Source: Spirochaetales bacterium (GTDB lineage Bacteria; Spirochaetota; Spirochaetia; JABEVK01). Taken from it: a stretch of DNA of 64,000 bases. The DNA lies in the NCBI GenBank assembly GCA_037142615.1, contig JBAXAI010000007.1, positions 32,001 to 96,000 of the forward strand, read 5' to 3'. The position numbers were made by a program, and so were the translations under genes. This document shows positions 23,970-45,042 of the stretch, piece by piece; the first letter of the stretch is position 1, and each line of letters starts with the position of its first letter. The notes under the pieces are model-generated. The model was given only the letters and a program-made list of their open reading frames with translations, ran no database searches and was not told the origin of the DNA.

Positions 23970-23970
23970 G

Positions 23971-25140: not shown

Positions 25141-25155
25141 AGATGGCCTCCTCGT

Positions 25156-25603: not shown

Positions 25604-25945
25604 CGGCGTTCCTCCACGATTCTCTCGGTCGGAACCCGCCCGTCGAAGGCCTTGTGCACTTGCGCGGCCGTGAGTTCCGACCCGGTATGCACCACGCCCT
25701 CTCAGGCCAACCAGAGGTGTAGGCCAGTTGGTTGGTCTCTCAGGCCGTCATGTACGGCTGGCGCAGGCTTCTCAGGTCTGTCTTGGCGCTTCCCGCGCGC
25801 AACGCCGTGCGCAGATCCTTAAGTGCGTTCCCCGCAGGTTCACGTCGAAGCGAGTAGCTTTCTCCAGTTACCAGCGCAGGTGGGCGTACCTGTCCTCGGT
25901 ATAGACACGGATCGTGTCGTTTATCCAGAAGGATTCGGTTCCGTT

Positions 25946-26053
25946 GGCCAACGACGTGTTGCGGAGTGAACGCTTGTTGGCGATGAAGCGGGAGATCCTG
26001 GCGTCACTGCGAAAGAGTGGGGTTGAGGTGCCCGAGGACTTGGAAGAACTGGA
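25946..26053 (+). repeat. 108-bp direct repeat, copy 2 (orphan copy of the phosphatase 3' end)
   Basis: Matches 19293-19400 and abuts the nrtR stop codon. Confidence 0.9.
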
Positions 26054-26056
26054 CTC

Positions 26057-26743
26057 CTAGAGCTCGAACCCGTAGCCTTGGGCCTGCAACTTCCGGTAGG
26101 CCTCGGCGTCGAACCGGAACAGCTGGGCAGCCCGGTGGGGCACGCCCTCCTCCACCTTGTCGAGGGGAATCAGCAAGTTGGTCGACAGCAGTTTCTTGCG
26201 GAAGTTCCGTTTGTCCAGCTCCTCGCGAAGAATCGTTTCGTAGAGGCGCTGCAGCTGGGTCAGGGTGAACTCCTGGGGCAGGAACTCGAAACCCAGCGGT
26301 TGGGTGCGCAGCTTGTGCTGCAACTGCCGCAGCGCGTCGGCCAGAATGGTCGCGTGGTCAAAAGCCAGGCTGGGCAAGTCGTCAACGGCAAACCACAAGG
26401 CGTCCGCGGCGTCGGTGGCAGGGCGGACCTTGTGCTCAAACAAATTGACGATGGCGAACCACGCCACGGTGATCACGCGCTCGCGGGGGTCGCGGCCCGG
26501 GGTCCCATAGGCTGCCAACTGCTCCAGGTAGAGTTGAGTGACCCCAGTCTCCTCCTCGAGCTCGCGGCGAGCGGCCGCCTCCAGGTCCTCGTCCATCTTG
26601 ATGAACCCGCCGGGCAGAGCCCACGCCCCCTGAAACGGCTCGAGCGCCCGCTGGATGAGCAGGACCTTGAGAGCCCCATCATCGAGGCCGAACACCACGC
26701 AGTCGACGGTGACTGCCGGATGCGGATACTGATACGTGTACAT
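26057..26743 (-). CDS. nrtR: NrtR, Nudix-related transcriptional regulator
   Basis: Nudix box [32 protein letters not shown], and C-terminal wHTH ([20 protein letters not shown]). Confidence 0.9.
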
Positions 26744-26761
26744 GGTGTTAGAATAACACTT
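26743..26761. promoter_or_regulatory. NrtR box 4 (autoregulatory), on a probable leaderless promoter
   Basis: TGGTGT-tagaata-ACACTT touches the nrtR ATG. Minus strand has TTGACA (26772-26777) and TATTCT (26750-26755). Confidence 0.8.
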
Positions 26762-26832
26762 TCCTGTCAGTTGTCAAGAAGGCACCCCCAGTAGGCCAGC
26801 TGCTGGGCAGTTCATCGCCAACGACGAGCAAG

Positions 26833-28632
26833 CTAGACCCCGACATACCCGAAACTCAACATCGACTCGAGGGCCGCCACAGCCTTCGGGTCCTGGCAGA
26901 TAAAGCTCACTTTGGGCTTCAGCCCTTCCTGGAAGAGGTAGGTCGCCGCACAGACCACGGCCACCTGGGCAGCGACCTCCAGCGGATAGCCTCGGCCACC
27001 GGCACCCAACAGAGGAACGGCCAGATGCAGGAGTCCACGGTCTTTGGCCAGACGGAAGCAGTTCCGGTACACGGCCGCGAGTTGATCCCCGTCGTTCTTC
27101 CGGTTTCCCGTGCCATTGGGAACATTGGCGTGCAGCACCGCCGCCGCCGCCAGCGCGCCGCCCCCCGTCGCCGACACCTGGCCGGGAGTCAAAGATCCCA
27201 GAGCCTCACATTCCGCGCGGTAGGCGACGCCTCCCTCGGCGCGCAGGTGCCCGTCCAAGCCGGTTCCCGCCGACCAAGAACTGACGATCGCATCGGCGGA
27301 AATCCGGGCCAAATCGCCGGTGGTCACGACCATCGACCGCGCCGCGATCATGATGACCTTGCGGTTGATGTGCCCATCAAACCGACCCTCGTCCATCGCT
27401 TGGCTGCGCGAGTAGGCCTCAAAATGCGCGTTCTTGCGCAAGCGGGCGAGGCGGCCCTCCACGAGGTCCTTTTCCAGCGAGTCGAGGGAGGCGTTTTCCT
27501 TTTCCAAGGCAGGCGAGTCGGCGAGCCCCCCGAGGAAACCGCGGGCCCGTGCGAGAGCGGCCCTTATGGCTGCCTCGTCCTGAGCGTCCACGCTCGTCAT
27601 GGCCTCGCGCTTGGCCCGTGCGGACCGGAGCAAGGCAAGGGCCTCGGCGGCAACCGGATCCGCTGGCAGTGCGTCGAACGACGCCACGCTGACGACCGGC
27701 AGCCGGACCGACAGCCTGGCCTCGCGGCGCTCGCCGGATTCCGGATCGCTCCACGCCAGTTGAAACACACAGGCTTCCAGGTCATCGCCCGGTTTTCCCG
27801 CGAACGACGACAAGGCCCGCAGCGAGAAGCCGATCGTCTGGCGTGCCCCGGCCACCAGATTGGGAAGGACAGGTGTGCCCGCCTGGGAAACAGGAAAGTC
27901 GTTCAGGATGCCAACCAACTCGATCCCAGGACTCGGGAAGATCGACAGCGTGACCTGCCTGCCGACGACGGCCTTGAAACCCCGAAGCTCGGCCTCGAAC
28001 AGCCCGGGAAGCTGGTCGGCCTCTTCCACGTAATAGTAGGAACCGTCGCCCGCTCGCGAGATGGTCTCGAGCAGGTCCTCGTTGTAGTCCTCGCCGATGC
28101 CCATGGCGCTGGTCGCAACCCCCCTGTGCGCCGCCTCGGCGACCGCCGCCGCGATGGCGCCGGAGTCTGTGACACCTTCGTTGGCCAGCCCGTCGGTCAG
28201 CAGGACGACCCGGCGGGGACGATTGGCTTCGCTCGATCCCGCAAGGGTTGCGGCACCCGCGGCCCAGCCTCCCTGCAGGTCGGTATTGGCGCGGGCCTCG
28301 ATCAAGGCGATCTTCGCGTGAAGAGCAGAGGCGTCCTTGGCGGCGATGAGATCCTGAAGAACTTCCACCTGGTTGTCGAAGATGGTGAGGCTCACCCGGT
28401 CGTCTTTGCCGAGTTGCCCGATAGCCGCGCTGGCCCCCGCCCTGGCGAAGGCGATCTTGTTGCCTTGCATCGACCCCGACCGGTCGAGAACGAGAGCCAG
28501 GCTGACCGGAGACCTCTCCTCGGGGTGGTCGGGCTTGGCAACCTGGACGGTTGCCAGCAGGTCGAGGGTCCGAACGCCCTCCAGGGCGAACCCCTGCCTG
28601 ATCGGTCGGATGGACAGTTCCGGTGTAGTCAT
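26833..28632 (-). CDS. vWA domain protein fused to a C-terminal Macro domain
   Basis: MIDAS DRSGSM, LLTDGLAN, IGEDYNEDLL. C-terminal TTGDL..DAIV, TGGGALAA, Y.NCF.LA and PLLGAGGRGYP are macrodomain-like. Confidence 0.85.
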   Translation of the reverse strand: MTTPELSIRPIRQGFALEGVRTLDLLATVQVAKPDHPEERSPVSLALVLDRSGSMQGNKIAFARAGASAAIGQLGKDDRVSLTIFDNQVEVLQDLIAAKDASALHAKIALIEARANTDLQGGWAAGAATLAGSSEANRPRRVVLLTDGLANEGVTDSGAIAAAVAEAAHRGVATSAMGIGEDYNEDLLETISRAGDGSYYYVEEADQLPGLFEAELRGFKAVVGRQVTLSIFPSPGIELVGILNDFPVSQAGTPVLPNLVAGARQTIGFSLRALSSFAGKPGDDLEACVFQLAWSDPESGERREARLSVRLPVVSVASFDALPADPVAAEALALLRSARAKREAMTSVDAQDEAAIRAALARARGFLGGLADSPALEKENASLDSLEKDLVEGRLARLRKNAHFEAYSRSQAMDEGRFDGHINRKVIMIAARSMVVTTGDLARISADAIVSSWSAGTGLDGHLRAEGGVAYRAECEALGSLTPGQVSATGGGALAAAAVLHANVPNGTGNRKNDGDQLAAVYRNCFRLAKDRGLLHLAVPLLGAGGRGYPLEVAAQVAVVCAATYLFQEGLKPKVSFICQDPKAVAALESMLSFGYVGV

Positions 28633-28652
28633 TTGGGTCTCCTTGTTCTTCT

Positions 28653-28671
28653 TGGTGTATACACTACACTA
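28653..28671. promoter_or_regulatory. NrtR box 5
   Basis: TGGTGT-atacact-ACACTA upstream of vWA-Macro. TTGACA is on the minus strand at 28684-28689. Confidence 0.8.
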
Positions 28672-28797
28672 TTAAAGGAGATGTGTCAACAGGCCCCTGG
28701 TTTCTAGACCGGCCATCGTCCCGGCGCCGCTAAACACGGTATGGCCGAAAGGCTAGTCCACTTCGGAAGGGACAACAACCTTGACAGCACAAGAATA

Positions 28798-28816
28798 TGG
28801 TGTATATTCAACACTA
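28798..28816. promoter_or_regulatory. NrtR box 6, on a probable leaderless promoter
   Basis: TGGTGT-atattca-ACACTA ends on the A of ATG 28816. TTGACA is at 28781-28786 and TATATT at 28803-28808. Confidence 0.8.
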
Positions 28817-29754
28817 TGAAGTCAATCCCTCCTCGCCTTGCCGATGTCATGCTGGGCCTTGCCACCGGCGATGCGCTCGGCGTGCCCTTTGAGTTCCGAT
28901 CCCGAGCCCTGCTTGACCGCGCTCCCTGCACCGGCATGGTCGGGTTTGGCTCGCATAACCAGCCCCCGGGCACGTGGTCCGATGACACCTCGATGGCGCT
29001 CATCCTGCTCGAGACTCTGCAAACAGGCGGGAGCTTGGACGACGAACTCGCGGGTTATCGCCGCTGGTGGCGCGAGGGGTACCGAACCCCACACGGGGTC
29101 TGCTTCGACGTCGGTGGGACAACGGCGCAGGCCTTGGGAAGCGGCAAAGGTCAAACCGGTGAGTCCTCGAACGGCAACGGAAGCCTGATGCGGATCGCTC
29201 CGCTGGCGTTCTTTGTTTCGCACTTGCCTGCTGAGGTGCGTCGGGTACGCTGCTTCGCCGAGTCGGCGGTGACGCACGCGCATCTGCGGTCGCAACTGGG
29301 GTGCTGGCTGTTTGTCGAGGTGCTCCTCGAAGTTCTGGGGGGGCTGCCGGTTTCCGAGGCGCTGGAGGAGGCTTGGGCACGGGTAGACAGCTGGGCCACC
29401 CGCGGCGGCGCAGCCAAGGAGTGGACCCACTACACCCGCTGTCGTTCCCCGATCGCGCTGGCCCCACGCGCCGAGATCTCCTCCAGCGGCTATGTGGTGC
29501 ACACGCTCGAGGCGGCCTTGTGGTGCGTCTTGACGACGAGCGACTATCGCGACGCCACGCTGGCCGCCGTCAATCTGGGCAGCGACACCGACACCACCGG
29601 CGCTGTCACGGGGGCGCTGGCTGGTTTGATGTACGGGCGCGAGGCGATTCCAATTGACTGGTTGGAGAAGTTGAAGGGCCAGGAACAACTTGACGAGGTT
29701 CTGTGCGCCGAAGACGGGGGCCTTCTCGTTTGGAGTTTGGCTGCCAAGGGGTAG
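28816..29754 (+). CDS. ADP-ribosylglycohydrolase (DraG/ARH family)
   Basis: GDALGVPFEF, GTWSDDT, SNGNGSLMR, VTH, SSGYV, NLGSDTDT. Confidence 0.9.
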   Translation: MKSIPPRLADVMLGLATGDALGVPFEFRSRALLDRAPCTGMVGFGSHNQPPGTWSDDTSMALILLETLQTGGSLDDELAGYRRWWREGYRTPHGVCFDVGGTTAQALGSGKGQTGESSNGNGSLMRIAPLAFFVSHLPAEVRRVRCFAESAVTHAHLRSQLGCWLFVEVLLEVLGGLPVSEALEEAWARVDSWATRGGAAKEWTHYTRCRSPIALAPRAEISSSGYVVHTLEAALWCVLTTSDYRDATLAAVNLGSDTDTTGAVTGALAGLMYGREAIPIDWLEKLKGQEQLDEVLCAEDGGLLVWSLAAKG

Positions 29755-30089
29755 CAGGGAATGCTGGCCCATCCAAGCGCAGTTGCAAAGGCTGAAGCAG
29801 CAAATCAGTCGCCTTGCTCAGCAGCTTGAAGCGGCTCGCCGGGAATCCGAGTACCCGCACGGCGGCAACCTCGGTACTGACGGGAGCACCTCTGCCAATG
29901 GCTTCTGTCACCATCCACCCCAAAATGTCACCATGAGAACTCGACTAACGATCGACCTGGATCCGGCACAAAAGCAACGCCTGCTGCAACTGGCTCGACG
30001 ACCACCCGGAACTCTCGGAGCGCGCTCGAGGGGTGATTGACTCCGGCAAAAAACTATTCCTTAGGAACGAAATCCTGTGCGAGGTGGTC

Positions 30090-30372
30090 ACGTTGGACGA
30101 GACACTTGGCAAGTTGATTGCGGGCTGAGTGCGAAGGACTTTTCACAGCCTCAGCCTTCTGGGGAGCGCGATTGGGTCGATGCTCCCGCCGTTGGTGGTG
30201 AACTGGAACGTGGCAGTCGACCGGTGTTGGTGGTGTCACCTGCTGAGTTTAACGCAGCAACCAAGCTGCCAGTGATCTGTCCCATCGCGAGGGGTGGAGA
30301 TTATGCCGACGGCCATTTTGGAAGAGGTCCTGGCAAGACTCGCACCCATCTTCGAGGGAACGAACAATCCCT
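30090..30372 (+). pseudogene. Decayed MazE/MazF (PemI/PemK-ChpB-like) toxin-antitoxin remnant
   Basis: Antitoxin-like tail ERDWVDAPAVGGE is joined to toxin-like RPVLVVSPAEFNAATKLPVICPI..GG. The C-terminal ILEEVLARL lies in another frame. Confidence 0.65.
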
Positions 30373-30523
30373 TGGACTCAGACCATCACCTAAGTTTGAC
30401 ACCTTCTGCCAAGTTGATCACGCGCTGAAACGGACCAGCACGTAAGTCCAGACATAAGCAAAAGACCCTACCGAGACGGGGACGCCAAAACGTCTTGAGT
30501 TCTGCCTGCCGGCAGAACTCACA

Positions 30524-30572: not shown

Positions 30573-30594
30573 AGGCACCGAGCGGATTCGAACC
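30573..30594. repeat. att core, duplicate of the tRNA-Cys 3' end
   Basis: AGGCACCGAGCGGATTCGAACC, identical to 53965-53986. Confidence 0.95.
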
Positions 30595-33226: not shown

Positions 33227-34291
33227 CTACTTATCCGGAAGGTCACAGACATTTCTCACAAGCCACGTCGAAAGATTCTTGCCTGGAAGGCTATACGTAT
33301 GCTTCGGGTCAGATTTGCTGGCAACCCTAATTGCAGTTTCGTGGCCCTTCTCCTCGGGATTGAGTCGGCGTTTCTGGTTCTGGATGACAAAGTGAACCAT
33401 GACGTCTTGCTTGTCCGTGGTCACGATTTTCGGTTGGCCCGCACTCTCGATACGTCTTGTTGAGGTAAGAAAGCCAACGAGAGCAACGGCCTCCACCACA
33501 CCTTCTTGCCATTTGATCGGAGCCAATTCCTTCCGAAATGCATGTGTTGGCCTGAACTCCAACCGTCCGTTCAAGTCATTCAAGTGCAGTTCACAGCCGT
33601 CGCAGAACATGTGGTCAAGCACGGACTGGACAGAACCTTTCACCATGTTATTGTCGACGAGAAACCGGGCGAGAGGAAGGATCTTGTCCTTGTACTTCGG
33701 GTTCCATTCGATTCTTGTCAACGAGCGAACATCGTTCCCGACGAGCTCGTCGAAACTGAACTCGTCAAGTTCGAATCCGTTGGCCGCAAGGTCGATTTTG
33801 GGAATCGGCATTCCGAGTTCTACCATCAAGGCAACAACTCTGAAAATCTCCGCATCGAGGTGCCGTTTGATGCCAAGCTTCACTTTCTTGGCGGCTTCAC
33901 CCAGGGAAGATTCTCTGCAAGTCACGGGAGCCCCATTGAGGTCGATGTAGCGGTACAGCTTTTCCAGATACTTGACTTCGATACTGTTGTTGCCAACGAT
34001 GGTGATTTGATTTTCAGGTATTGCGGAGAACCGTGATCGCAAAGTTTCGAGCTCGTCTTCGTCTTGGTAGTTGTGTGTTTCTATTCCCACTTCGACCATA
34101 GCTTCTCCGTCCGCGTTCAAGGCAGGTTCCACTCGCACAATCAAACGATTATCACTCGTGGCGACTCCCTCACTTAATCCATTGAGAAACTTCCAGTAGT
34201 CAATGATTTCCCGAGGTTCTGACTGTGTACCAACTGAGCGTCGAAATGCGGCCTTTGAGAGCGCCACGATGTACGAATCTTCCGCTGGCAT
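33227..34291 (-). CDS. Hypothetical protein (354 aa)
   Basis: Long ORF with typical composition. Start MPAEDS inferred. No family recognised. Confidence 0.65.
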   Translation of the reverse strand: MPAEDSYIVALSKAAFRRSVGTQSEPREIIDYWKFLNGLSEGVATSDNRLIVRVEPALNADGEAMVEVGIETHNYQDEDELETLRSRFSAIPENQITIVGNNSIEVKYLEKLYRYIDLNGAPVTCRESSLGEAAKKVKLGIKRHLDAEIFRVVALMVELGMPIPKIDLAANGFELDEFSFDELVGNDVRSLTRIEWNPKYKDKILPLARFLVDNNMVKGSVQSVLDHMFCDGCELHLNDLNGRLEFRPTHAFRKELAPIKWQEGVVEAVALVGFLTSTRRIESAGQPKIVTTDKQDVMVHFVIQNQKRRLNPEEKGHETAIRVASKSDPKHTYSLPGKNLSTWLVRNVCDLPDK

Positions 34292-34445
34292 TGCTACACC
34301 CCCATCGGCAAGGCAAGATTGAGGCTCAGAGCCCAAAGTTTGTGGTCTCCTCGCCGCCTTCGCTGATCTCGCCGCCTTGTCCCTCAAGGGCCAGGGCGGC
34401 TCCAAGTCCACAAACTGTGGCCTCTTCGCCAGGACACTAACCTGG

Positions 34446-36500
34446 TCACAACAAGTCTGCCAAGAACTCCGAACCGCTTCCCCCGCTGGTTACCAGCAAC
34501 GTGTCTCGGGCCCGCGTACAGGCCACATACAGCAAGTTTCGCTCGGTATTGAAGATTTCCTCGAGCTCGGAGGCATCGCCAGCCGAGTTGATCCGCTCAT
34601 CGGAAGGAATGATCCCTTCATCACACGCCATGACGGCAACGCCGCGGAACTCCAGGCCTTTGGCAAGGTGCATGGTGACGATGGAAAGCTTCCCTGGAGT
34701 GGCTGCGACATGCTCATCGAGGACGACAAAGTTCAGTCCTGCATCGGCGGCGACTTCGTGGGCTCTGGGAAACTCATTGGTCGAGCGGACAATGAGGGCC
34801 AGCTCGTGAGGCTTGTAGCCTTGATGAAGAAGCTCGCCAAGCCAATTAACCACGGTCGAGCGTTCCTCTTGGCTAGAGGAACACTCCTTGACGGTTGGTA
34901 AAGGCCCGTTGAACACCGAGATAGTTCGGGTGCGATCCTCGACGTTTCCGTCGACATCACTGACTGCCTTGCCCAGTAGTCTGTCGGCTTGGCGTCGGAT
35001 TTGGTGGGAAGTTCGGTAGTTGACGCGCAGTGTCCTGCTGCGTCCCCTGAGATCGATCCCTGCCGACTTCCAGCTGAACGGCGTCCTGAAGATGCGTTGA
35101 GCAGTGTCTCCTGCAAAGAAAAGTCGATTCGGAACCGTGGCGCCAAATGCAGCCAGGAAACGGAGCTGCGGGAGACTGATGTCTTGGGCCTCATCGACGA
35201 CCACGAACTCGAATGGCGGACGTTTTCGATTGCCAATCTCTCGCACGAGGTGATTGAACAGGCCTGACTCAGTCACCTGGTGCTTGTTGCTCAGCTCCGT
35301 CCGAACGGCCTCGAAAATCGTCCAAAGGACCTTCCGCTGTGCCTCCGGCAATCTGGTCTTGCGTCCCAGTCTTGCGACATCGCGGTAGGCTTCCCACGAA
35401 ATTAGGTCTGAAGCTTCGACAACATCAGTCCATTCGGACACCAGAAAGGCAAGACCAAAGGTATGGCCCTGGACAGAATGCGATGCCCTTTCCATCAACT
35501 CGGTTAACGCATCATCGCCCAGAAGCTCAAGTGCATCGGCTGATTTGTCCACGAATCGAAGCGCAAATGATGTCATGGAGTGGACCGCAATCCGCTCCGA
35601 CAGCCGAGGCTCGGTTGAAATGAGGCGATTCAGTTTGTCTTTCAGTGAGTGGGCCAGGGCCTCCGTAAAGGTCGCCAAGAGGACGCGGGCTTCCGGGTGA
35701 ACCCTTGCCAAATGAACAGCCCGGTGAAGAGCAACGATCGTCTTGCCTGTTCCGGAACTTCCTGAGACTCGGAATGGTCCCGTCTGGTTCGCTTCAACGA
35801 GATCCCGTTGATCCGGGTGGAGAAACGTAATCCACTTCTCCCAGGGGGCATCGAGAGCCATCTGGAGGGCCTCAGAGTTGGCGAGGACTTGGAACCGACG
35901 TTGTGCGTCGGGATGCTCAAATGGATCGGTTGAGTCGGCCGGTTTGGCGGCGGGCCATCCACCGACGGCGACTTCGAGAAGTGCCTCGGACGCTTCAGCC
36001 GGCAAGTGATCGGTCAGCTGAAGAATCGAGTCCTCAGTGGCGTTCCGAACGTCACCCAGCCAGTCTTCGGGAACACCCCACGATAGCAAATCAGCATCCG
36101 TGCACCTCTGGAAGAGCCTTTGCTTGGGTGATTGCTCTTCCACGTACTTTGGGATGACGATCTCTTGAACTGTTTCCCGAACTTCGACCAGCTGCGCAGC
36201 TCGAGTCTGAGGATGGACTTCCAGCTTCCGCCTCTCGGCCCATTCATAGGCTTTGTCATGGTGGTCGACGTAACAGAGCATCAGACTTTGCTCCGTCCGG
36301 TGGACGATGATCCTCAGATCACTCGAAACACGCACTGACCAAAACGCTTTGTCTCGGGCACGTTCCAGCTTGTGGAACTGATGGCCCGGGTTGGCAGGAT
36401 TCACCTGGAGATCGAAGGCGGTGGTCTTCGACACCTTTTGTTCATCGGAGGTGAGCTTGGCGAGGCTGTCGGTGAAGGTAGAGGACAGGAGAAATGTCAG
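34446..36500 (-). CDS. UvrD-like SF1 helicase with N-terminal RelE-like domain, probable CTG start
   Basis: GSSGTGKT, VVDEAQD, NYRTS, TMHLAKGLEF, LYVACTRARD. The frame continues upstream of the GTG as (CTG)TFLLSSTFTDSLAKL, with GGAG 7 nt before the CTG. Confidence 0.85.
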   Translation of the reverse strand: MTFLLSSTFTDSLAKLTSDEQKVSKTTAFDLQVNPANPGHQFHKLERARDKAFWSVRVSSDLRIIVHRTEQSLMLCYVDHHDKAYEWAERRKLEVHPQTRAAQLVEVRETVQEIVIPKYVEEQSPKQRLFQRCTDADLLSWGVPEDWLGDVRNATEDSILQLTDHLPAEASEALLEVAVGGWPAAKPADSTDPFEHPDAQRRFQVLANSEALQMALDAPWEKWITFLHPDQRDLVEANQTGPFRVSGSSGTGKTIVALHRAVHLARVHPEARVLLATFTEALAHSLKDKLNRLISTEPRLSERIAVHSMTSFALRFVDKSADALELLGDDALTELMERASHSVQGHTFGLAFLVSEWTDVVEASDLISWEAYRDVARLGRKTRLPEAQRKVLWTIFEAVRTELSNKHQVTESGLFNHLVREIGNRKRPPFEFVVVDEAQDISLPQLRFLAAFGATVPNRLFFAGDTAQRIFRTPFSWKSAGIDLRGRSRTLRVNYRTSHQIRRQADRLLGKAVSDVDGNVEDRTRTISVFNGPLPTVKECSSSQEERSTVVNWLGELLHQGYKPHELALIVRSTNEFPRAHEVAADAGLNFVVLDEHVAATPGKLSIVTMHLAKGLEFRGVAVMACDEGIIPSDERINSAGDASELEEIFNTERNLLYVACTRARDTLLVTSGGSGSEFLADLL

Positions 36501-37642
36501 GACGCATCTCCATTGCTTTCCAGCAAGTCCGAGACTTTCGACGCCGTCGGCGACAGCTGAACTTCAAGTCCATTGGAATCTAGCCCAACAATTCGTCCAG
36601 AGACTTCGACGCTTCCCACACGAATCTGCGAAACCGTGAACTCGGCTCCCATTTCCTTGAGCGTTCTCGCGACACTTGGGTTGAGTCTGGAGGCCTTCTT
36701 TGGTGCCACATAGCTAGTAATGTAGGCATGGGGTGTGAGTGATGATATTCGAAGCAGGTCCTCTTTTGTGGGAATCATCCTTCGCCCGCGGACGAATGGG
36801 GTCAACACGCAAAGCGGTCCTTCCTTGAGTGCCTCACTCCAGATTCGTGAATTGTGCCCGGTCACAGAGCCATGGTGCGAAACCTTAAAAATATCCGACA
36901 TCGGTAGCGATACGTCACGCGAATCAAGTACGCTCAGCCAACCCTCTTCGGGATCGGCCGAGTTTTCCAAATCGGCCCCGAGAAGGACGCTGAAATCATC
37001 GATTGAAAGTACAAGTCCGATCGATGCCAGGTTCTTGCCCCTGGAAGCAATAGGGACCACTTTCGAACCCGGCGTCGGCATATGTCCTAGAAGATTTTCC
37101 ACCTCACGCTGGATTGACTTGTCCGATGGCGAGAGCGCCAGGAGTTGGACTTTGCAAGACCGGCCTTCGATTTCGATCATCCGCGAGAACAGCACCTTGT
37201 TTTGCATCGCCAACACCGGGCGGGGCCCCCTACGAGTGCGTAGTGTGTCCAGTATGCTCGAAAGCTCAAATAGCCCACTCCGCGAGATTCTCCCGGATGT
37301 CCGATAGATTGCCAATAACTGCTCAATACTCTTGTCAGTCAATAGCGTCGAACTCACAAATCTCGCCGAAGTACCTCGGCTAACCAACTGCGAGATTCCA
37401 CGAATATGGTCGTCATGCCAGTGCGTCGCAATGACGTACTCAAGGGATTTTCCGATGTCTACCCCGAGTTCTTCTAGAAACCCAAGCGCTGGGACGGTAT
37501 TGGTCCTGCTGTCAATGCAGGAGTCGACGGTGAACCAGAAGTCATCGCCCACTCCGACGACAATGCTCTCTCCGACTCCAGGACCAAATACCTTGATCCT
37601 GAGCATTTTGGCTTCCTGTTCAGGCATATCCGCTAATCCCAC
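36497..37642 (-). CDS. Metallo-beta-lactamase-fold hydrolase (ComEC/Rec2-like nuclease type)
   Basis: GPGVGESI, VDSC, THWHDDHIRG (HxHxDH), N.ASI, LLGAD, KVSHHGS. Confidence 0.85.
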   Translation of the reverse strand: MGLADMPEQEAKMLRIKVFGPGVGESIVVGVGDDFWFTVDSCIDSRTNTVPALGFLEELGVDIGKSLEYVIATHWHDDHIRGISQLVSRGTSARFVSSTLLTDKSIEQLLAIYRTSGRISRSGLFELSSILDTLRTRRGPRPVLAMQNKVLFSRMIEIEGRSCKVQLLALSPSDKSIQREVENLLGHMPTPGSKVVPIASRGKNLASIGLVLSIDDFSVLLGADLENSADPEEGWLSVLDSRDVSLPMSDIFKVSHHGSVTGHNSRIWSEALKEGPLCVLTPFVRGRRMIPTKEDLLRISSLTPHAYITSYVAPKKASRLNPSVARTLKEMGAEFTVSQIRVGSVEVSGRIVGLDSNGLEVQLSPTASKVSDLLESNGDAS

Positions 37643-38232
37643 TCCAGAGAAGTGAATAGTGTTGCTTCTGCCTTTTTGGCTTTTCGGAAATCACTCTTGG
37701 TCCACCGGGACATCCTCCGGAAACGAATCTCCGAAACACGAAAGGTCTGCCCATCGAGTTGCGTACGCATCCCGATGCTCCAGTAGAACACTGCTCCGAC
37801 TTCAAAAAGATTTTGATCATCGGCTGCGATTTCGGCTCGCGGGATTTCTGTCGTGTACTCAGGACGAACTTCCATGAGATCCCGAGCAACTGCAACGAAA
37901 CTGTCTTCTGAGATTTCAACAACACGGCATTCCCACCTTCCAAGGCACTTGAAGGTACTTAGGACAACCCTTCCGGTGGCGGGAATCACGAAACGACTCA
38001 GTTTCTGTTCAGTATTCAGCTGCACCGGAGCCAGAGTGCTGTTCTTCTGAACATCCCTTGGCTCGACACTAAGGTCCAATGGATTTTCGATGTTTGTCAG
38101 CTTCTTCTTGAACTCATTGAAATACTGCAGAACTGGGTGGACTTCAGACTGCTGAGGTTCGCGCCTGGAACCACTCCTTGGGCTTGAAAAGTCTAGCAGG
38201 GCCTCATATGTCACATCACTCATAAATTGCAT
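37633..38232 (-). CDS. Hypothetical protein with C-terminal OB-fold-like beta domain
   Basis: Polar N-terminus, then WECRVVEISEDSFVAVARDL...GAVFYWSIG...SEIRFRR. Overlaps both neighbours. Confidence 0.65.
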   Translation of the reverse strand: MQFMSDVTYEALLDFSSPRSGSRREPQQSEVHPVLQYFNEFKKKLTNIENPLDLSVEPRDVQKNSTLAPVQLNTEQKLSRFVIPATGRVVLSTFKCLGRWECRVVEISEDSFVAVARDLMEVRPEYTTEIPRAEIAADDQNLFEVGAVFYWSIGMRTQLDGQTFRVSEIRFRRMSRWTKSDFRKAKKAEATLFTSLEWD

Positions 38233-38878
38233 CCATCAGGCTCTTGCAGATCGATGCCGCCTTCTTCTGTGACTTCTCCCAACCATTTTCCAGCAAGGAG
38301 ACCAAATGCTCACCATTATAGCTGCCGCTAGGGGTCTTGGCGAACTCAAAGTGATCATTGATGAACACGTAGAGACCGTTCTCGATACGCACCGAAGGTT
38401 CAAGGCGAACCGAGATCTTTCCTGTGATTTCGAAACTGTCTCGGAGCACCTCAAAAGAAATATTCGTGAGCACGCGATCCGACAGTCCTTCCGGGAAGTT
38501 CTTCGAAGGCGCGTATTTCTCGGCAATTGAGTTCCATGTTGTTCCCTTGCGAAGTCGAAAATGGTACTCGGTATTCAGCCCTGCGAACTGTATCGGGGTC
38601 GAAATATGCGTCTCAAAAGTTGCACGGACGAGATCACGAAGAACCTCAAAAGAGGACTCATGCGCTGTGGACGCCGTAAACCTCTCCCTCGAAACAAAAA
38701 TCGAGAGCCAGTCAGTATTGAACTTCACAAAGTCGTTGTTGATGAACTCGACACTTGCAGCAGTGGCTTCGGATTGCCGCAATATTTCCTCGCCGGCAAA
38801 CCATAAAGGTTGATACACAATAGGATTAAATTGACCCACTACGACAATCGAATGACTAGTCAATTCAGGCGAAACCAT
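38216..38878 (-). CDS. Hypothetical protein, TIGR04255-like
   Basis: IVVVGQFNP..QP.W, TPIQFAGLN, RLEPS, FINDHFE. Family resemblance from memory, not searched. Confidence 0.6.
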   Translation of the reverse strand: MVSPELTSHSIVVVGQFNPIVYQPLWFAGEEILRQSEATAASVEFINNDFVKFNTDWLSIFVSRERFTASTAHESSFEVLRDLVRATFETHISTPIQFAGLNTEYHFRLRKGTTWNSIAEKYAPSKNFPEGLSDRVLTNISFEVLRDSFEITGKISVRLEPSVRIENGLYVFINDHFEFAKTPSGSYNGEHLVSLLENGWEKSQKKAASICKSLMDAIYE

Positions 38879-38942: not shown

Positions 38943-41708
38943 TCATACCCTAAACACCTTCATCACCTCATCGCCTAGGTGGTTGATCACTTTCACGGCA
39001 ATCCGACCGTTCTTGGGCTTGTCGAAGGGCCGCGAGACGGAACTGTGGAGGCTGTCCCAGGCGTCGGCGTTGATCTCGGCCTTCAGCGTCGTCTTGAGCG
39101 AGCCATAGGGATCGTTGGCTCCTAGGAAGTAGGCGTGGCGGACGAAGAACGACTCTTCGTTGTAGTCGGTGTCGATGAACCAGCAGGCAATGCCATCTGG
39201 GCCATCCGACCGAACGTCACCACTGCGCGGGTCGAACACATCGACGCCCTTCACCTCGATGGTCACCTGGTTATCGCCGACTTCCTGGACCTCGATGTCG
39301 GGCTCCCCAAAGATGACGAACAGGTTGCCCTGGCCGTTATTTCGCAAGTCTTCGGCCATGTGAAGATCGGCGTTCATCCGTGCCTTGAGGACGGGGATGC
39401 GGCCCAACTTGTGGAACTCGGTCGAGTGTGCGTCGTAGTTGAAAGCGCAAGCGATGAGGACGTCGAAATCCGCTTCGGCTGCCTCGCGAGCCGCTTCAAC
39501 CAAGTCCGGGCGGCTGACGGTTCCAAACTCGGGTCCCAAGAAGATGGCGGCCCGATTGTCGCCGTAGCGCCCTTCAGCGCAGATCATCCGGCCCGGCCAA
39601 GGCGTCAGTGAGGTGAAATGGATCTTGTCACCCTTGTCAGGCTGCTGGACGCCGGCCTTGAAAAGGTTGTCGAGGATAAGCCCGGCGAAGTCGTGCACAT
39701 CGTATGCCGCAGAAGGCTCGCGAAGTTCGTCGACCAGTTCATCGTTTTCATCGACCGAAAAAGTGCGATGGGGTGACAAGCTCTCAACCGTGAACGGCCC
39801 GGCGACTCGCACCTTTTTCTTGTCTTCGTAGGGCTTGTCGTAGAGGTACTCGTACTCAGCCTTGGCCGCGATGCTGGCGTCGAACTCCTTTTGGCGGGAG
39901 ATTCGGGCCTTCCAAAATTCAGAGTGTGCCCTATTGGCCACCTCGGACCACGAGGCATCGGTGCCGCGAGGGATTTCCCAATCCTCCCAGGAACTCGCGG
40001 TGGCGGAGTTGAGCTGGACTCGCAGAGGTTCGAGGATTGCCTGCCACTTGTCCCAGATCACGTCGATTTCGGCGTTGTTGGCGATGCTTTTTAGGGTGAT
40101 GTGAGGAACCCTTTCGTACACAAAACCGTGCCTCAGGTTGCCATAGGTAGGTTTGCTACTCAAGGGAGTCCGTGTGACCTCACTCTCTTTGGCTTGTCCT
40201 TCGGGGCTATCTGCCATTAGGTAATAGGGGTAGCGTGCGCCCATGATTCGAGCCCGGGCGAGAGCTAGAGCGACGCGACTGGTATCGACTGTGATCCACC
40301 GGCGGCCCCACTGTTCTGCTACGTACGCGCTGGTGCCAGAACCACATGTGGGGTCGAGGATGAGGTCACCAGGATCCGAGGCCATGAGGAAACAGCGCTG
40401 GATGGGCAACACGTCAGTTTGAACAACGTACTGGGCATCGTCCTCCCCGCGAGTGTCAGTCCAAATGTTTGTGATGGCCCGGAAAGGGAAATCGTCGAAG
40501 TATCGCTTATAGATTCTCAAACCGGGTTGACGAAGGAGTCGCCCAACTTTCCAAAGTTGCTTGATCCCCTTTACCCCTGGCTTCCAGTGTCGATTTGGTT
40601 TGCAGGACAGCCTGATCACACCCTTGCTGGACATGAACTCAACGTCGGGATCATCACCACCCTTTGATGAAATGTCTCCAGTTGCGAAGATTCGAGCACC
40701 CTCAGGCAAGTTGACCTTGTTGCGCTCTGTGTACTTGCTAATTGGTTCAAGAACCCCGGTCAGAGTTTCGACGCGCTTGTACTCTTTTGCTCCGTCCTCA
40801 CCAGGAAACTGAGGAAAGTAGAGTGGCCGCGCCTTCACCTGTTCACGATTCTTCGCGTACCAGACTATGGAGTCGAAGACCTGCGAGATGGTGTCGGATG
40901 TAGAACCGGTGGTCTTGGTGAATACTATCTGCGCCACACAGTTCCCCTCTCCAAACACCTCGTCCATCAGCGCACGCACCCGATGCACGTTCTCGTCGCC
41001 AATCTGGACGAAGATGCTACCGCTGTCAGTCAGCAAGTCCCTAGCCACGGTCAACCGATCCCTCAAGTAGGTCAAATAGCTGTGGATGCCATCACGCCAG
41101 GTGTCGCGGAAGGCTTTGACCTGCTCCGGCTCGCGAGTGATGTGCTCCAGGTTGCCATCCTTCACGTCGCGACTGGTAGTGCTCCACTGGAAGTTGCTAT
41201 TGAACTTGATGCCATACGGCGGGTCAAAGTAGATGCACTGGACTTTGCCCCTCAGTCCTTCACGCTCGGCCAGACTGGCCATCACCTGCAGGCTGTCGCC
41301 TAGAATCATCCGGTTGGTCCAGTGGGCGTCATGCTGGTAGAACTCGGTCTTGGCACCCTCGCTGGGAAGGCCGTTGAAGTCGGCGAATAGGTCAAACTGG
41401 TCTGCGGGTTTTTGCCCCTTCTGTGTCTGTTTCACCAAGTCGTCGATGAGCACCTTTGGGTGAACCTTTTCCTGGATGTAAAGCGGTGGCGCGTTGACCA
41501 CCAAGTCGCTCCAATCCTGTTCATCCTTTCCACGCCACACCAACTGCGGGTCAAGATCACGGTTACGGCGACCATAGGCCACACGGATGGGCGACTTGGT
41601 ATCCGACTCGACCATCGCCTGATACTCGGCAGTGGGAATGTTCTTGCGGGTCTCATCGACGTGGGTGAACGTTGCGATGGGTTTTGGTGTCGGGTCAGTC
41701 TTGGCCAT
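38943..41708 (-). CDS. Type III-like RM adenine DNA methyltransferase (Mod)
   Basis: ILGDSL, YFDPPYG (motif IV), LDPTCGSGT (motif I), long C-terminal extension. Confidence 0.9.
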   Translation of the reverse strand: MAKTDPTPKPIATFTHVDETRKNIPTAEYQAMVESDTKSPIRVAYGRRNRDLDPQLVWRGKDEQDWSDLVVNAPPLYIQEKVHPKVLIDDLVKQTQKGQKPADQFDLFADFNGLPSEGAKTEFYQHDAHWTNRMILGDSLQVMASLAEREGLRGKVQCIYFDPPYGIKFNSNFQWSTTSRDVKDGNLEHITREPEQVKAFRDTWRDGIHSYLTYLRDRLTVARDLLTDSGSIFVQIGDENVHRVRALMDEVFGEGNCVAQIVFTKTTGSTSDTISQVFDSIVWYAKNREQVKARPLYFPQFPGEDGAKEYKRVETLTGVLEPISKYTERNKVNLPEGARIFATGDISSKGGDDPDVEFMSSKGVIRLSCKPNRHWKPGVKGIKQLWKVGRLLRQPGLRIYKRYFDDFPFRAITNIWTDTRGEDDAQYVVQTDVLPIQRCFLMASDPGDLILDPTCGSGTSAYVAEQWGRRWITVDTSRVALALARARIMGARYPYYLMADSPEGQAKESEVTRTPLSSKPTYGNLRHGFVYERVPHITLKSIANNAEIDVIWDKWQAILEPLRVQLNSATASSWEDWEIPRGTDASWSEVANRAHSEFWKARISRQKEFDASIAAKAEYEYLYDKPYEDKKKVRVAGPFTVESLSPHRTFSVDENDELVDELREPSAAYDVHDFAGLILDNLFKAGVQQPDKGDKIHFTSLTPWPGRMICAEGRYGDNRAAIFLGPEFGTVSRPDLVEAAREAAEADFDVLIACAFNYDAHSTEFHKLGRIPVLKARMNADLHMAEDLRNNGQGNLFVIFGEPDIEVQEVGDNQVTIEVKGVDVFDPRSGDVRSDGPDGIACWFIDTDYNEESFFVRHAYFLGANDPYGSLKTTLKAEINADAWDSLHSSVSRPFDKPKNGRIAVKVINHLGDEVMKVFRV

Positions 41709-44700
41709 GGGCGTCCTTCTTGGTCACGGAGTCGAGCATCTGGTTCACTTGTGGGGACACGACGGCTTGGAAGTTGGAACCTATGTCAAAAAGGTCTCGC
41801 ATTTCCACGAAAGCCCAGCGACCAAACTTCTTGAGGTTGTTGACGCCAGGAATCCAGTAGGTGTCCATCGTTTGCCGCTTCACCACGGCGTCTTCGCCCC
41901 GGTAGCCCTTGATTTCGACCACCAAGTTAAGCAAGTCATCCTCGCCGTGCCCGTCTTCGACCAACACGATGAAGTCGGGCAAGTAGCGGTGCGCTTCACC
42001 GCCCATCACGTAGGGCACCTCGAACCCGAGGCTCTGGTTCTTCACGTAGGCCCGCACGTTGGGGTGTTGTTCCACCACACGGCAGAACTCGCCTTCCCAC
42101 TCGCTATCGAGCACTGCCCAATTGACGTGGCTTTTGCGGCTGTCGGTCTCCCATCGAAGCGTCTTGGATGTCGTGAAGTTCACATGCGCTGTGGTTCCTT
42201 CGGGGTTGTAAGGATCAATGACCGCCAGAACTGGCCGCTCCTTGCTCATTTCTGCCAGCGTGATGGCAGCGACGATTTTTTCCGCCGCCAAGTTGGCCAA
42301 GTACTTGTACTTCAGCTGGGCCGGATACGTGCCACCGCTACACTTCAGACAGGTGTCGATCCACTGGCGGACGACAGGCTTCAACTTGCCGAACAGGTTC
42401 ACTCTCGGGTTGTTGTCTCCGTCGCGCCAGTGCTGCTGAACAATGTAGGCGGTCAGTCCGAAGACCACCTGGGAAGGCCTAACATCGCCGGTGTGATCGA
42501 GTGTGAGACTGGCCATCTCACCGATGATGCCCGAGTTCTGGGTGCTGGTTGCCCCTACTTCGGTAGGAGTGAGGTGGAGAATCGATTCGTCGGTAAAGTG
42601 GTAGCGGAGTTCTTCTGCGGGCATTTCGACCCGGTAGCCTTTGACATTCGGAAACCGGATTTCCAGCGCCTGCCGTTCGGGGTTCACAGCTTTCACCTGG
42701 ATGGTCTCACGAGGTTTCACCGGCTTAGAGATGACCGGTTTGGCGGTGAAGTCGAAAGGAATGCCGAGCACGTCGGCATACTCGACGCCGAAGAGACCTT
42801 CTTCATTGAGTTCGTACGACTGACGGCGCAGAGCGCGGCCGATCACCTGCTCGCACAGCAACTGAGTACCGAAGGCCCGGACTCCCAAAACGTGAGTCAC
42901 GGTGTTGGTATCCCAACCTTCGGTCAGCATCGAAACCGAGACCACGCAGCGGATGGACTCTCCAAGCTTGCCCTTCTTCCCGACGGTGTTCATGACTTCG
43001 CGCAGGATGTCTGCATCGGTCAGCGAGTCCGCCTTCTGCACGTCGCCTGTGCGCTCGATGACGTCGCGCCGGAACTGCTCGATCTCGGGAGCCGCAAACT
43101 TGCGGAACTGGTCGTCGAGGGCTTCGCCTGACTCCAACTGCTCGCTGTCGATCAGCAGAGTTCGAGGTCGAGGGTACGGATTGCCGTATTCGTCGAAGTT
43201 GGAGAACAACGGCAAACGCCCAGGGATGAACTCTTCGGTGCCATTGCTTTGGGTTCGGGTATAGCCGGAGATGTAGTCGTAGACCAGCTTCGACGCCGAA
43301 GTGTTGTTGCAAACAACGATGAAGCAGGGATCGACGCCCATTCGGGCTTCTCGCCACACTTCAAACGACAGCTTGTAGTGGCCGTACAACGCCTCCAGGG
43401 CCGTCTGCAATTGCGGAGGCAAGTCGTCCGGGTTCAGGTCATTCGTCTGACCGCGGCCCTTCTTGGGCATCTTGTCGCGGATGTGTTCCCACAGATTGCG
43501 GAACATGGGCATCTCGTTGCCGACGATGTTGTCGGACACGGGAACCCGAGGCAGCTTGACGATGCCGCATTCAATGGCGTCCATCAGTGAGAAATCGGAC
43601 ATCGTCCAAGGGAACAGTGTTCCTTCCCGGTACCCCGAGCCTCGCAAAAAGAACGGCGTTGCCGACAGGTCGACGATGCGGTTGCAGCCGAGCTGACGTG
43701 TCACCACCTCGAGACCATGAATCCAGAGCCTGGCGGCCTCCAGGTTCTCCTCGATTTCCTTTCGGTCGTCGCCCTTCAGGGCCGCTTCTTCCTCGGTCAG
43801 CGGACGTTCTTTGTAGCAGTGATGGGCTTCGTCGTTGAGTACCATCACGTTCTTGATTCCCATCAGATCGGGAATCACCCGCTGGAGCATCTGTCCTTCG
43901 GTCTCCGTCGTCAGCAGATCGTCACCGCGTCCTTTCAGGAGCGATCGGGTGCCCTTGGAGACGTCCAGGGTTTCTCGCAGCTTGAAGGCGTGGTAATTGG
44001 TGATGACAATCTTGGCCTTGCCCAGATCGGAAAGGAGTTCGGTGGGAACCAGCTCCCGGCTGATGTAGTAGCTGTCAGGATCGTTCGGCTGCAGAACCCG
44101 GAGGCGATCCTTGATCGTTATGCCGGGTGTGACAATCAGGAAGCCGCGGGTGAACTTTCGGCTACCCTTGTACCGAACCGCATTGATCGTCTGCCAAGCA
44201 ATCACCATGGCCATGACCGTAGTCTTTCCGGCGCCGGTGGCGAGCTTCAGGGCAAGCCTGGACAATCCCGGGTTGGCCTGTTCATTGGCGGCTGTCAGGT
44301 GGTCGAGAAACGCCTCACCGCGTTTGCCGACTTGGGGAGCCACTTCCGTCAGCCAAATGAGAGTCTCAACGGCCTCGATCTGGCAGAAGAACGGCCGCTG
44401 GTTGTGGAAGGGATGCGTACGCCAGTGCTGGAGCAGCCTTGCCGTTTCAGGAGTGACTTTCCAGTCCGAGGGGTCTTTGAGAGCTCGCCATTCATCGACC
44501 TGATGGCGCAACGAGTTGATCGTCTGTGTCAGGTCGTAGTTCAGTTCCTCAGTAGAAATGTCAGCGCCCACGTCGTCGAAGAGCATTTCCTCGTTCGCGG
44601 GCCCATTCTTTTTCCCACCCCGCTTCTTTGGCTTGGGGATCGGAGTCACGAACTTTGCCGGCCGCCGGGTACCGACCACTTGCTGTGTCGGCTGGCCGGT

Positions 44701-44778
44701 CTCGTCCAGCTCCCAATGCTGGGCCGGTGGCTCATACGGGGAGTTCAAGATGGGATGGTCAAAAAAGGGGTTTGACAT
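41695..44778 (-). CDS. Type III-like restriction endonuclease/SF2 helicase (Res)
   Basis: LATGAGKT, NDEAHH, LSATP, MLTEGWD, QVIGRALRR, and C-terminal PD-(D/E)xK (YLPDF...VEIKG). Overlaps the mod start. Confidence 0.9.
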   Translation of the reverse strand: MSNPFFDHPILNSPYEPPAQHWELDETGQPTQQVVGTRRPAKFVTPIPKPKKRGGKKNGPANEEMLFDDVGADISTEELNYDLTQTINSLRHQVDEWRALKDPSDWKVTPETARLLQHWRTHPFHNQRPFFCQIEAVETLIWLTEVAPQVGKRGEAFLDHLTAANEQANPGLSRLALKLATGAGKTTVMAMVIAWQTINAVRYKGSRKFTRGFLIVTPGITIKDRLRVLQPNDPDSYYISRELVPTELLSDLGKAKIVITNYHAFKLRETLDVSKGTRSLLKGRGDDLLTTETEGQMLQRVIPDLMGIKNVMVLNDEAHHCYKERPLTEEEAALKGDDRKEIEENLEAARLWIHGLEVVTRQLGCNRIVDLSATPFFLRGSGYREGTLFPWTMSDFSLMDAIECGIVKLPRVPVSDNIVGNEMPMFRNLWEHIRDKMPKKGRGQTNDLNPDDLPPQLQTALEALYGHYKLSFEVWREARMGVDPCFIVVCNNTSASKLVYDYISGYTRTQSNGTEEFIPGRLPLFSNFDEYGNPYPRPRTLLIDSEQLESGEALDDQFRKFAAPEIEQFRRDVIERTGDVQKADSLTDADILREVMNTVGKKGKLGESIRCVVSVSMLTEGWDTNTVTHVLGVRAFGTQLLCEQVIGRALRRQSYELNEEGLFGVEYADVLGIPFDFTAKPVISKPVKPRETIQVKAVNPERQALEIRFPNVKGYRVEMPAEELRYHFTDESILHLTPTEVGATSTQNSGIIGEMASLTLDHTGDVRPSQVVFGLTAYIVQQHWRDGDNNPRVNLFGKLKPVVRQWIDTCLKCSGGTYPAQLKYKYLANLAAEKIVAAITLAEMSKERPVLAVIDPYNPEGTTAHVNFTTSKTLRWETDSRKSHVNWAVLDSEWEGEFCRVVEQHPNVRAYVKNQSLGFEVPYVMGGEAHRYLPDFIVLVEDGHGEDDLLNLVVEIKGYRGEDAVVKRQTMDTYWIPGVNNLKKFGRWAFVEMRDLFDIGSNFQAVVSPQVNQMLDSVTKKDAHGQD

Positions 44779-45042
44779 TGCTGTCAGTTCACCATGAAGG
44801 CCAGTTGAAGTCAAGTTTTCATCCATTACCGTGCAAGAAATAGTCGACCTCCATACGCTACGCGAGGTCCACGAGACAATCATCGCGCATTGGAATGCAC
44901 TAGCTGTGCGCAATCGACAGTATTTCACGGGCTAGGAAGCAGATACGTAACACTTGTATAGTAACTCTTGTCTCCGTTCACCTTTCTGTTTTGGCCCCAC
45001 TTGAAACGACATATTCCAACCCTGTCCTAGCAAGGAGGGAAC

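Follow-up and report, generated by a model that had tools for sequence, protein, structure and literature searches.

A conserved three-gene unit encoding a ComEC-type metallo-beta-lactamase-fold protein and two partner proteins: a candidate undescribed mobile conflict module in a spirochaete integrative island

The window analysed here is a 64,000-nt stretch of DNA from a Spirochaetales bacterium, which harbors on its minus strand (36497-38878) a compact trio of genes that are named A, B and C in this work. Gene C encodes a soluble metallo-beta-lactamase (MBL)-fold protein of the ComEC/Rec2 type, and its two partners belong to no named family. The trio is located between genes of a restriction-modification (RM) system, recurs as a unit in numerous bacterial lineages, and constitutes a solid candidate for an undescribed, widespread system that is built on a known kind of effector. 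The three genes are as follows:

38216-38878, minus strand: gene A, 220 aa, a TATA-box-binding-protein (TBP)-like alpha/beta protein with two lobes, which belongs to no named family and may serve as a sensor or regulator
37633-38232, minus strand: gene B, 199 aa, a disordered N-terminus followed by a domain of oligonucleotide/oligosaccharide-binding (OB) topology, predicted bridge between A and C
36497-37642, minus strand: gene C, 381 aa, a predicted DNase effector with the features of a soluble ComEC-type MBL-fold hydrolase

When the first possible start codons are taken, the open reading frames (ORFs) overlap by 17 nt at the A/B junction and by 10 nt at the B/C junction, and the alternative starts ATG 38223 (B) and ATG 37627 (C) would give an overlap of 8 nt and a gap of 5 nt, respectively. 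The ATG of gene A is preceded by the ribosome-binding site GAGAGGA. In 500-nt windows, the G+C content amounts to 0.466-0.534 over the trio, 0.528-0.598 over the adjoining methyltransferase and restriction genes (Mod and Res) and 0.552-0.584 over the helicase gene on the other side. A first-pass annotation, made by a model from the letters alone, had described three overlapping genes of 220, 199 and 381 aa that are more AT-rich than res, mod and the helicase, and the ORF coordinates and G+C windows agree with it on both points.

Homologous loci were retrieved through the alignment of B only, which gave at least 123 confirmed loci among 185,579 species genomes from one peptide pattern; 80 of them (individual loci are cited below by L-numbers) were kept, and homologues were called by phmmer over all of their ORFs. 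The order A-B-C was observed in 73 of the 80 loci, and the remaining seven comprise four that end at a contig edge (L024, L046, L061 and L081) and three that are without a part of the trio (L013, L025 and L038). A homologue of A lies directly upstream of B in 75 of the 76 loci with contig room, and a homologue of C directly downstream in 76 of the 79 testable ones. According to the record titles, the 80 loci are distributed over about 17 phylum-level groups, including Actinomycetota, several Desulfobacterota-type lineages, Nitrospirota, Verrucomicrobiota, Chloroflexota, Planctomycetota, Acidobacteriota, Gemmatimonadota, Bacteroidota/Ignavibacteria, Spirochaetota, Myxococcota and Pseudomonadota. 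The junctions are tight: A and B overlap in 64 of 75 cases (by exactly 4 nt in 30) and are never separated by more than 11 nt, and B and C overlap in 60 of 72, with one gap longer than 20 nt.

The pairwise-identity matrices of the three proteins, calculated over 55 loci, correlate with each other (A-C 0.53, B-C 0.37, A-B 0.26) to an extent reached by none of 300 label permutations, a signal into which host relatedness also feeds. No recurring fourth gene was found, the 450 ORFs within four genes of the trios falling into 424 clusters of which the largest is present in 4 loci. Copies were also encountered on plasmids, namely in Adhaeribacter swui (28-31% identity per protein) and, as a divergent trio, on pAR24_C of Pantoea agglomerans (profile E 1.8e-23, 6e-14 and 1e-83). 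The first-pass annotation had taken the three genes to belong together, and the co-occurrence check carried out here establishes that the trio is a conserved unit.

Several loci depart from the common arrangement. In L013, B stands without A and C and is followed by genes for an AMP-binding enzyme and a beta-CASP MBL RNase-like protein; in L025, where there is no contig room upstream for A, it precedes a 145-aa ORF and an IetA-like ATPase gene (PADLOC 9.3e-75); and in L038, a FIST_C-like gene comes after A and B. Effector swaps or decay could account for these three loci. In addition, 5 of 76 loci (L015, L034, L040, L070 and L074) have a split, truncated or interrupted C gene, in L034 with an insertion, next to A and B genes that are whole in all five.

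The product of gene C carries the motifs HWHDDH (74-79), GAD (222-224) and HHGS (256-259). Among 62 homologues, the ligands H74, D78, H79, D224 and H257 are invariant, and H76, D77 and H256 are kept in at least 90%. The profile of these homologues matched the ComEC MBL domain among the PDB sequences (9ic4_A, E 1.2e-11; 30bt_A, E 1.7e-9) in two blocks, and the profile alignment places about 50 extra residues of C between the blocks, from the HxHxDH region to the motif-4 region, and a further C-terminal region of about 90 residues beyond the ComEC MBL. The Pfam family Lactamase_B was matched at 24.4 bits against a cutoff of 22.7, and partial PADLOC matches of 26-38 bits were obtained to LmuA (2.5e-10), RTasMBL (1.4e-8) and Avs1a (1.6e-6), the NCBIfam Avs1a equivalog giving 28.7 bits against a cutoff of 420. 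No convincing membrane segment was detected in the three proteins by the maximum Kyte-Doolittle mean over 19 residues (A 1.07, B 0.90, C 1.72), the peak of C being a conserved strand of the MBL core, and no competence-domain Pfam family matched C. Judged by its sequence, C is a soluble ComEC/Rec2-type MBL-fold protein, as the intact metal motifs and the missing membrane segment noted in the first-pass annotation had suggested.

Protein B is a member of a large family: a search of a 50%-identity library retrieved 2712 cluster representatives at E<=1e-3, of which 675 remain at E<=1e-10, and the cluster members of ten B homologues bore no informative names. Nearly all members are 180-230 aa long and share a strongly conserved C-terminal portion of about 110 residues behind a variable N-terminus, with W100, D139, W151 and R173 invariant. 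In the AlphaFold2 (AF2) model, residues 1-90 are of low confidence (predicted local distance difference test, pLDDT, about 55) and the folded domain (91-199) exceeds 95, which is in line with the earlier description of a polar N-terminus and a compact beta domain. This domain consists of strands 93-107, 111-118 and 126-131, a helix at 137-142, strands 148-157 and 163-171, and a C-terminal helix; its order beta1-beta2-beta3-helix-beta4-beta5 was compared with the OB criterion, a barrel of five strands in which a helix separates strand 3 from strand 4. Foldseek returned weak OB matches (LysRS, eIF5A and Teb1; best E 1.6e-2, probability 0.92-0.99, template modelling score, TM, 0.2-0.35), and the ESM Atlas gave TM 0.46-0.51 to clusters of cold-shock domain (CSD), eIF5A and single-stranded DNA-binding (SSB) proteins.

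At the level of sequence, no match of B was obtained in Pfam, NCBIfam or PADLOC, the profile of B found nothing among PDB sequences at E<=1, and the Pfam families of the ComEC OB domain matched none of 60 B members at E<=1. When 125 members of the A and B families were searched against PADLOC-DB v2.0.0, 124 had no match at E<=1e-3 and one matched REase_II at 17 bits. The Pfam family DUF7239, for which a literature search found no paper, was rejected as the family of B: its matches, obtained for 21 of 60 B members, extend over only about 28 residues in the C-terminal helix and score 14-16 bits, below the cutoff of 24.6. Stand-alone B domains with no A or C beside them were identified on an Acetobacter plasmid (133 aa, L002 5914-6315, profile E 1.2e-26) and in the jumbo Xanthomonas phage XbC2 (XbC2_402, 105 aa, L088 2504-2821, E 1.7e-7 over the whole domain), where the gene adjoins a cytosine methyltransferase gene; the nearest look-alike cluster of the B domain in the ESM Atlas is 58% viral. 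Such stand-alone genes may be decoys or reflect an independent use of the domain.

Protein A matched nothing in Pfam, NCBIfam or PADLOC at E<=0.01 and nothing among PDB sequences by its profile at E<=1, a word-index search with A alone recovered only itself, and a search for longer fused forms of A and B found none, which is weak evidence. Its AF2 model, built from a 66-row alignment, reached a pLDDT of 93.8 and a predicted TM score (pTM) of 0.90. DSSP assigned strand 6-15, helices 24-29 and 35-40, strands 42-46, 50-54, 59-63 and 66-71 and helix 74-90 to the first lobe, and strand 96-108, helix 115-122, strands 140-145, 153-162 and 168-178 and helix 189-219 to the second, and the order strand, helix, strands, helix occurs twice; the TBP-like fold with which it was compared has two repeats of strand, helix, four strands and helix that make up a saddle-like sheet. 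The best Foldseek match was S-adenosylmethionine decarboxylase (AdoMetDC)/prozyme (E 1.6e-4), slightly ahead of TBP, and rolling-circle Rep proteins were also matched, with TM 0.3-0.4; the TBP chains gave E 8e-4 and a probability of about 1.0, but a TM of only 0.35-0.41. We read the modelled fold as TBP-like and two-lobed, outside the AdoMetDC, TBP and Rep families. The invariant residues of the A family are G15, P24, W26 and D82, with no Ser, Cys or His among them.

The first-pass annotation had called A TIGR04255-like, which may hold at the level of the fold at most: an ESM Atlas structure search gave TM 0.82, without alignment or E-value, to a cluster auto-named 'putative TIGR04255 family protein', whereas none of the 66 A-family members matched the TIGR04255 model at E<=1. 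Such likeness as there may be concerns the length and the predicted fold, without a sequence match, a literature search on TIGR04255 found no paper, and the comparison adds no function for A.

The three chains were folded together with their own alignments, and B was scored as the partner. In three runs, ipSAE values of 0.80, 0.80 and 0.82 were obtained with B placed between A and C, at least 65% of the contacts agreed among the runs, and the partner pLDDT was at least 61. Replacement of B by an unrelated protein reduced ipSAE to 0.00 and 0.00, and replacement of C left 0.56, which indicates that the B-A interface stands on its own. Of 157 solved complexes, 116 attain the ipSAE mark, as do 2 of 215 mismatched pairs, and these counts are a rough guide here, with own alignments and three chains. 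In the model, the folded domain of B contacts residues 30-37 and 72-92 of A, which include the invariant D82, and residues 94-144, 189-201, 284-287 and 317-339 of C, which make up the C-specific insertion and the C-terminal region. The prediction, a check that the first-pass annotation had proposed, supports A-B-C binding and fits a regulator-adaptor-effector layout. Furthermore, the median isoelectric points of the families are acidic for A (5.6) and B (5.1) and basic for C (8.3), and with this distribution of charge a protein inhibitor of a DNA-binding enzyme fits better than DNA binding by A or B.

In the window, the trio is surrounded by the genes of an RM system within an integrative island, the relevant features of which are given below:

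41695-44928, minus strand: Res, a BPTD_3080-family restriction endonuclease (NF046055, 1305.9 bits), context of the trio
38943-41708, minus strand: Mod, a type III-like DNA methyltransferase (PDLC03632, 1366 bits; PF01555), context outside the module
34446-36434, minus strand: a UvrD/GajB-like helicase (Pfam UvrD domains; PADLOC GajB, 1.9e-26), context
53965-54036, minus strand: tRNA-Cys, the integration site of the island, whose 3' 22 nt form the proximal repeat
52689-53870: the integrase gene, in the tRNA-Cys island
30573-30594: the distal att-like direct repeat, an exact 22-nt copy of 53965-53986

The island spans 23.4 kb (30573-53986) between the exact 22-nt direct repeats, and its cargo also includes genes for RecT, RadC, a primase-like protein of the P4 type and an uncharacterised 394-aa protein (33227-34411). 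The tRNA-Cys, the integrase and the repeat together substantiate the earlier placement of the trio inside a mobile element. Res, Mod and helicase form a conserved three-gene unit that is found on many plasmids, with identities to the plasmid homologues of 44-55% for the helicase and 51-65% for Mod. On p1NCPPB4222 of Pseudomonas avellanae, the homologues of Res, Mod and the helicase adjoin one another directly, and this intact, trio-free unit supports the insertion of the trio as a unit between Mod and the helicase, which the first-pass annotation had also claimed. On plasmids of Rhizobium and Gemmobacter, the Mod-helicase junction is occupied by one or two small hypothetical genes, which have no relation to A, B or C, and one further gene lies at the Res-Mod junction. 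The junction is thus found empty, with other cargo or with the trio, which marks it, as far as these comparisons of sequence go, as a variable cargo slot that is filled by the trio in the window. A match on a Methylibium plasmid concerned Res only and was uninformative on this slot. On the strand of the trio, no terminator-like site was found at either of its junctions, and a promoter scan found one promoter-like site overlapping the start codon of A; the trio may or may not possess a promoter of its own.

These data bear on the proposal that the trio serves the surrounding Res-Mod-helicase system, for instance as a back-up nuclease or as a guard that fires on inhibition of the RM system, as the first-pass annotation had supposed. 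The position within the operon, where neither junction shows a terminator-like site on the strand of the trio, would be compatible with such an accessory, as would a second, independent insertion into an RM operon, in which HsdR and HsdS of a type I system flank the trio (L029, 383-5878), and the other small cargo at the Mod-helicase junction in Rhizobium and Gemmobacter. Against it, a 102-aa Res-like fragment in L035 is the sole homologue, across the 80 loci, of the Res, Mod, helicase, 394-aa protein and primase of the window; the RM unit occurs without the trio, and at most loci the two nearest genes on either side of the trio include no RM gene. The trio is independent of the RM system at these loci, the supposed guarding of the latter is not borne out, and the accessory role is considered very unlikely.

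Some further features of the window were recorded beside the island. A MazF/PemK-like ORF (30077-30445) lies just beyond the distal repeat. Ahead of its UvrD core, the helicase carries about 200 N-terminal residues, in which a HigB-like toxin match (E 0.004; 18 bits, the cutoff being 27) stays below the threshold and is probably due to chance. To the left of the island, an ADP-ribose-themed cluster (19501-29754) contains a VWA-Macro fusion protein (26833-28632), an NrtR-like Nudix regulator (26057-26743) and two ADP-ribosylglycohydrolases (23971-25140 and 28741-29754), beside which an RCC1-repeat protein and a large trypsin-like peptidase are encoded (19501-23969).

Among the 150 ORFs within two genes of the trio at 72 loci, 18 matched PADLOC models at E<=1e-15, and four of these matches were set aside as generic, namely a sigma factor (MzaA), an ABC ATPase (mad3) and two methyltransferases (mad2). 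A credible defence neighbour was recognised at about 12 of the 72 loci, as listed here:

L017 and L029: type I RM
L015: PglX-like methyltransferase
L074: AbiEi
L025: IetA
L051: HEC-05
L058: HEC-01B
L042 and L070: PsyrA
L070: PDC-S01
L026: LmuB fragment
L046: exonuclease effector

In Pfam, the same 150 ORFs include HEPN/MNT, Mrr, baeRF, patatin and Bro-N proteins as well as transposases, and 69 have no match. In L042 (902-1555) and L070 (5142-5789), the gene directly upstream of the trio is DprA-like (DNA_processg_A) and is scored by PADLOC as PsyrA, and clustering of the flanks gave one cluster of three DprA-like upstream genes.

The same neighbourhoods are relevant to the view that the trio is a DNA-processing or repair nuclease complex with no immune role, in which a soluble, split analogue of the OB and MBL domains of ComEC would degrade or trim DNA in the service of recombination, repair or nucleotide salvage. 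An OB domain is also part of ComEC, whose MBL domains are the nearest solved relatives of C, and B shows OB topology; moreover, many loci are flanked by housekeeping genes, MutS being present in L057 and DprA-like genes in L042 and L070. The DprA-like neighbours, however, score as PsyrA, a defence-associated antitoxin model, and the ComEC OB families of Pfam recognised none of the 60 B members. A patchy distribution with variable flanks, to judge from the loci confirmed by the single peptide pattern, the copies on plasmids and islands, and acidic A and B proteins that are untypical of DNA binders also speak against it, so that we hold this alternative to be possible but rather improbable.

In PHROG, C matched phrog_28593 (E 6.1e-27) and B matched phrog_29493 (E 5e-6), the latter being matched at E 1.4e-23 by the Pantoea B, whereas a tblastn search with B, C and the Pantoea C found no match in 50,697 phage records. 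A function of the mobile elements or phages themselves, such as degradation of host or competitor DNA, entry exclusion or counter-defence, would draw on these PHROG families, on the plasmid and island copies and on the stand-alone B domain of phage XbC2; it is countered by the negative search of the phage records and by the many chromosomal copies that lie far from recognisable mobile genes, and it appears unlikely on the whole.

Taken together, we give about an even chance to the reading that the trio is an autonomous, horizontally mobile conflict module in which B and A control the nuclease C and which is not tied to the RM system, its conflict role being most likely anti-phage or anti-plasmid defence or that of a toxin-like addiction module. 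This reading is based on the conserved unit with its tight junctions, co-inheritance and absence of a fourth partner, on the complex model, on the ComEC-type effector and the distribution of charge, on the context of RM operons, defence genes, plasmids and islands, and on the loci where C is broken while A and B are intact. In the mechanism envisaged, A, B and C would form a hetero-oligomeric complex in which the acidic OB-topology domain of B bridges A and C, and C would act as a metal-dependent DNase effector. B would dock on the C-specific insertion and the C-terminal domain and would thereby hold C inactive or untargeted in trans, with no protease involved in its control, and either A or the variable, disordered N-terminus of B might provide the input that changes the complex on infection or stress. 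The more specific version, a protease-independent trans-gating by B with A as the sensor, in which infection frees or re-targets the nuclease and phage copies of the B domain such as XbC2_402 serve as decoys, is put forward as a tentative suggestion only.

Several points weigh against the conflict module. What the analysis shows is the order, conservation and coupling of the genes, the modelled folds, the metal motifs, the independence from the RM genes and a predicted interface; we infer that C cleaves DNA, that B restrains it, that A acts as a sensor and that the module serves defence, and any toxicity or protection is likewise putative. The complex score is the model's own confidence with a calibration that comes from pairs of single chains, and B may or may not cover the active site of C. 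All locus counts cover loci that were retrieved through B, and A or C may occur elsewhere without it. The fraction of loci with defence neighbours has no background control and is suggestive only, and many loci are situated among housekeeping genes (ThiC, MutS, trigger factor, PEPCK and NAD synthase). L013, L025 and L038 carry B without the usual C, and several of the broken C genes originate from long-read metagenome-assembled genomes, in which frameshifts may be sequencing or assembly errors. Finally, the PHROG matches suggest that some copies reside in phage or prophage genomes, where another role is possible.

With regard to known systems, the prediction of the first-pass annotation that PADLOC would give no match proved right for A and B, and only partial matches were obtained for C; its statement that the cassette has no protease or ATPase partner likewise agrees with the Pfam, NCBIfam and PADLOC scans, which found none. 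A literature search on MBL, anti-phage, OB-fold, ComEC and TBP-like proteins, whose scope did not extend to bioRxiv supplements and tables of candidate systems, retrieved only work on protease-MBL systems and unrelated work. To our knowledge, the role of ComEC-type MBL nucleases as widespread death effectors has come to light only recently, and every published case known to us is switched on by a protease; one preprint (10.1101/2025.11.14.688446) is said to deal with protease-MBL modules.

Compared with ComEC/Rec2 itself, C shares the HxHxDH, bridging Asp and HHGS-type motifs, and an OB-type domain may accompany the nuclease in both cases, ComEC having one of its own. The differences are that C is a soluble protein of 381 aa with no membrane competence domain, that it possesses an insertion of about 50 residues and a C-terminal region of about 90 residues, and that B is a separate acidic protein without a sequence match to ComEC. 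Toxin-antitoxin-chaperone (TAC) systems, to which the first-pass annotation had likened the trio, and type II nuclease-inhibitor pairs resemble it in having small co-translated genes (three in number here), a potentially toxic enzyme and an acidic partner, which in this case is predicted to bind the basic nuclease. TAC systems have a SecB-like chaperone and an antitoxin with a chaperone-addiction tail; SecB is absent from the Foldseek lists of A and B, and neither a DNA-binding antitoxin domain nor a known toxin family was found; the gene order and sizes of TAC systems also differ from those of the trio.

The closest comparison is offered by the protease-gated MBL pro-nucleases. As described in PMC12799240, experiments have shown relatives of the ComEC-like MBL nucleases to act as DNase effectors of the Hachiman, Avs, Lamassu, DRT and canu systems. 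The active site of the pro-nucleases is blocked by two disordered insertions and becomes free when a trypsin-like or caspase protease cuts these; the gated members named there include HamM (Hachiman-MAB), the partners of Avs1a, Lamassu and DRT, and CanC of canu, and HamMAB is confirmed in PMC13069673. The trio might be a pro-nuclease system of the HamM or canu type, with a cryptic protease hidden in A or B that would cut gating insertions of C. Canu likewise has three genes with the nuclease last (PMC12799240), and C, which partially matches the Lamassu, DRT and Avs1 MBL models of PADLOC, has the roughly 50 extra residues relative to ComEC. No protease domain was found in A or B, though, and the invariant residues of A include no Ser, Cys or His and those of B are W100, D139, W151 and R173; the fold of A matches TBP and AdoMetDC rather than a caspase or trypsin, and the extra region of C is conserved in sequence and predicted to contact B. 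A hidden protease therein is accordingly highly improbable in our estimation.

If the reading as a conflict module is true, the trio would provide a second control logic for the ComEC-type MBL effector, in the form of a compact three-gene system for a nuclease that is held inactive by its partners rather than by the need for cleavage; thousands of hypothetical proteins in many phyla would become annotated, and the repeated insertion of the trio into RM operons would add a case of layered defence. With the protease-gated systems of PMC12799240, the trio shares a stand-alone, soluble ComEC-like MBL protein as the effector, here a predicted one, of a small operon. It differs from them in that no trypsin-like or caspase protease is encoded in the trio and none recurs in the flanks of the 80 loci, in that C stays far below the Avs1a family cutoff (28.7 against 420 bits), in that its two partners, one TBP-like and one of OB topology, fall into no named family, and in that the control of its nuclease is predicted to proceed via a bound partner instead of cleavage.

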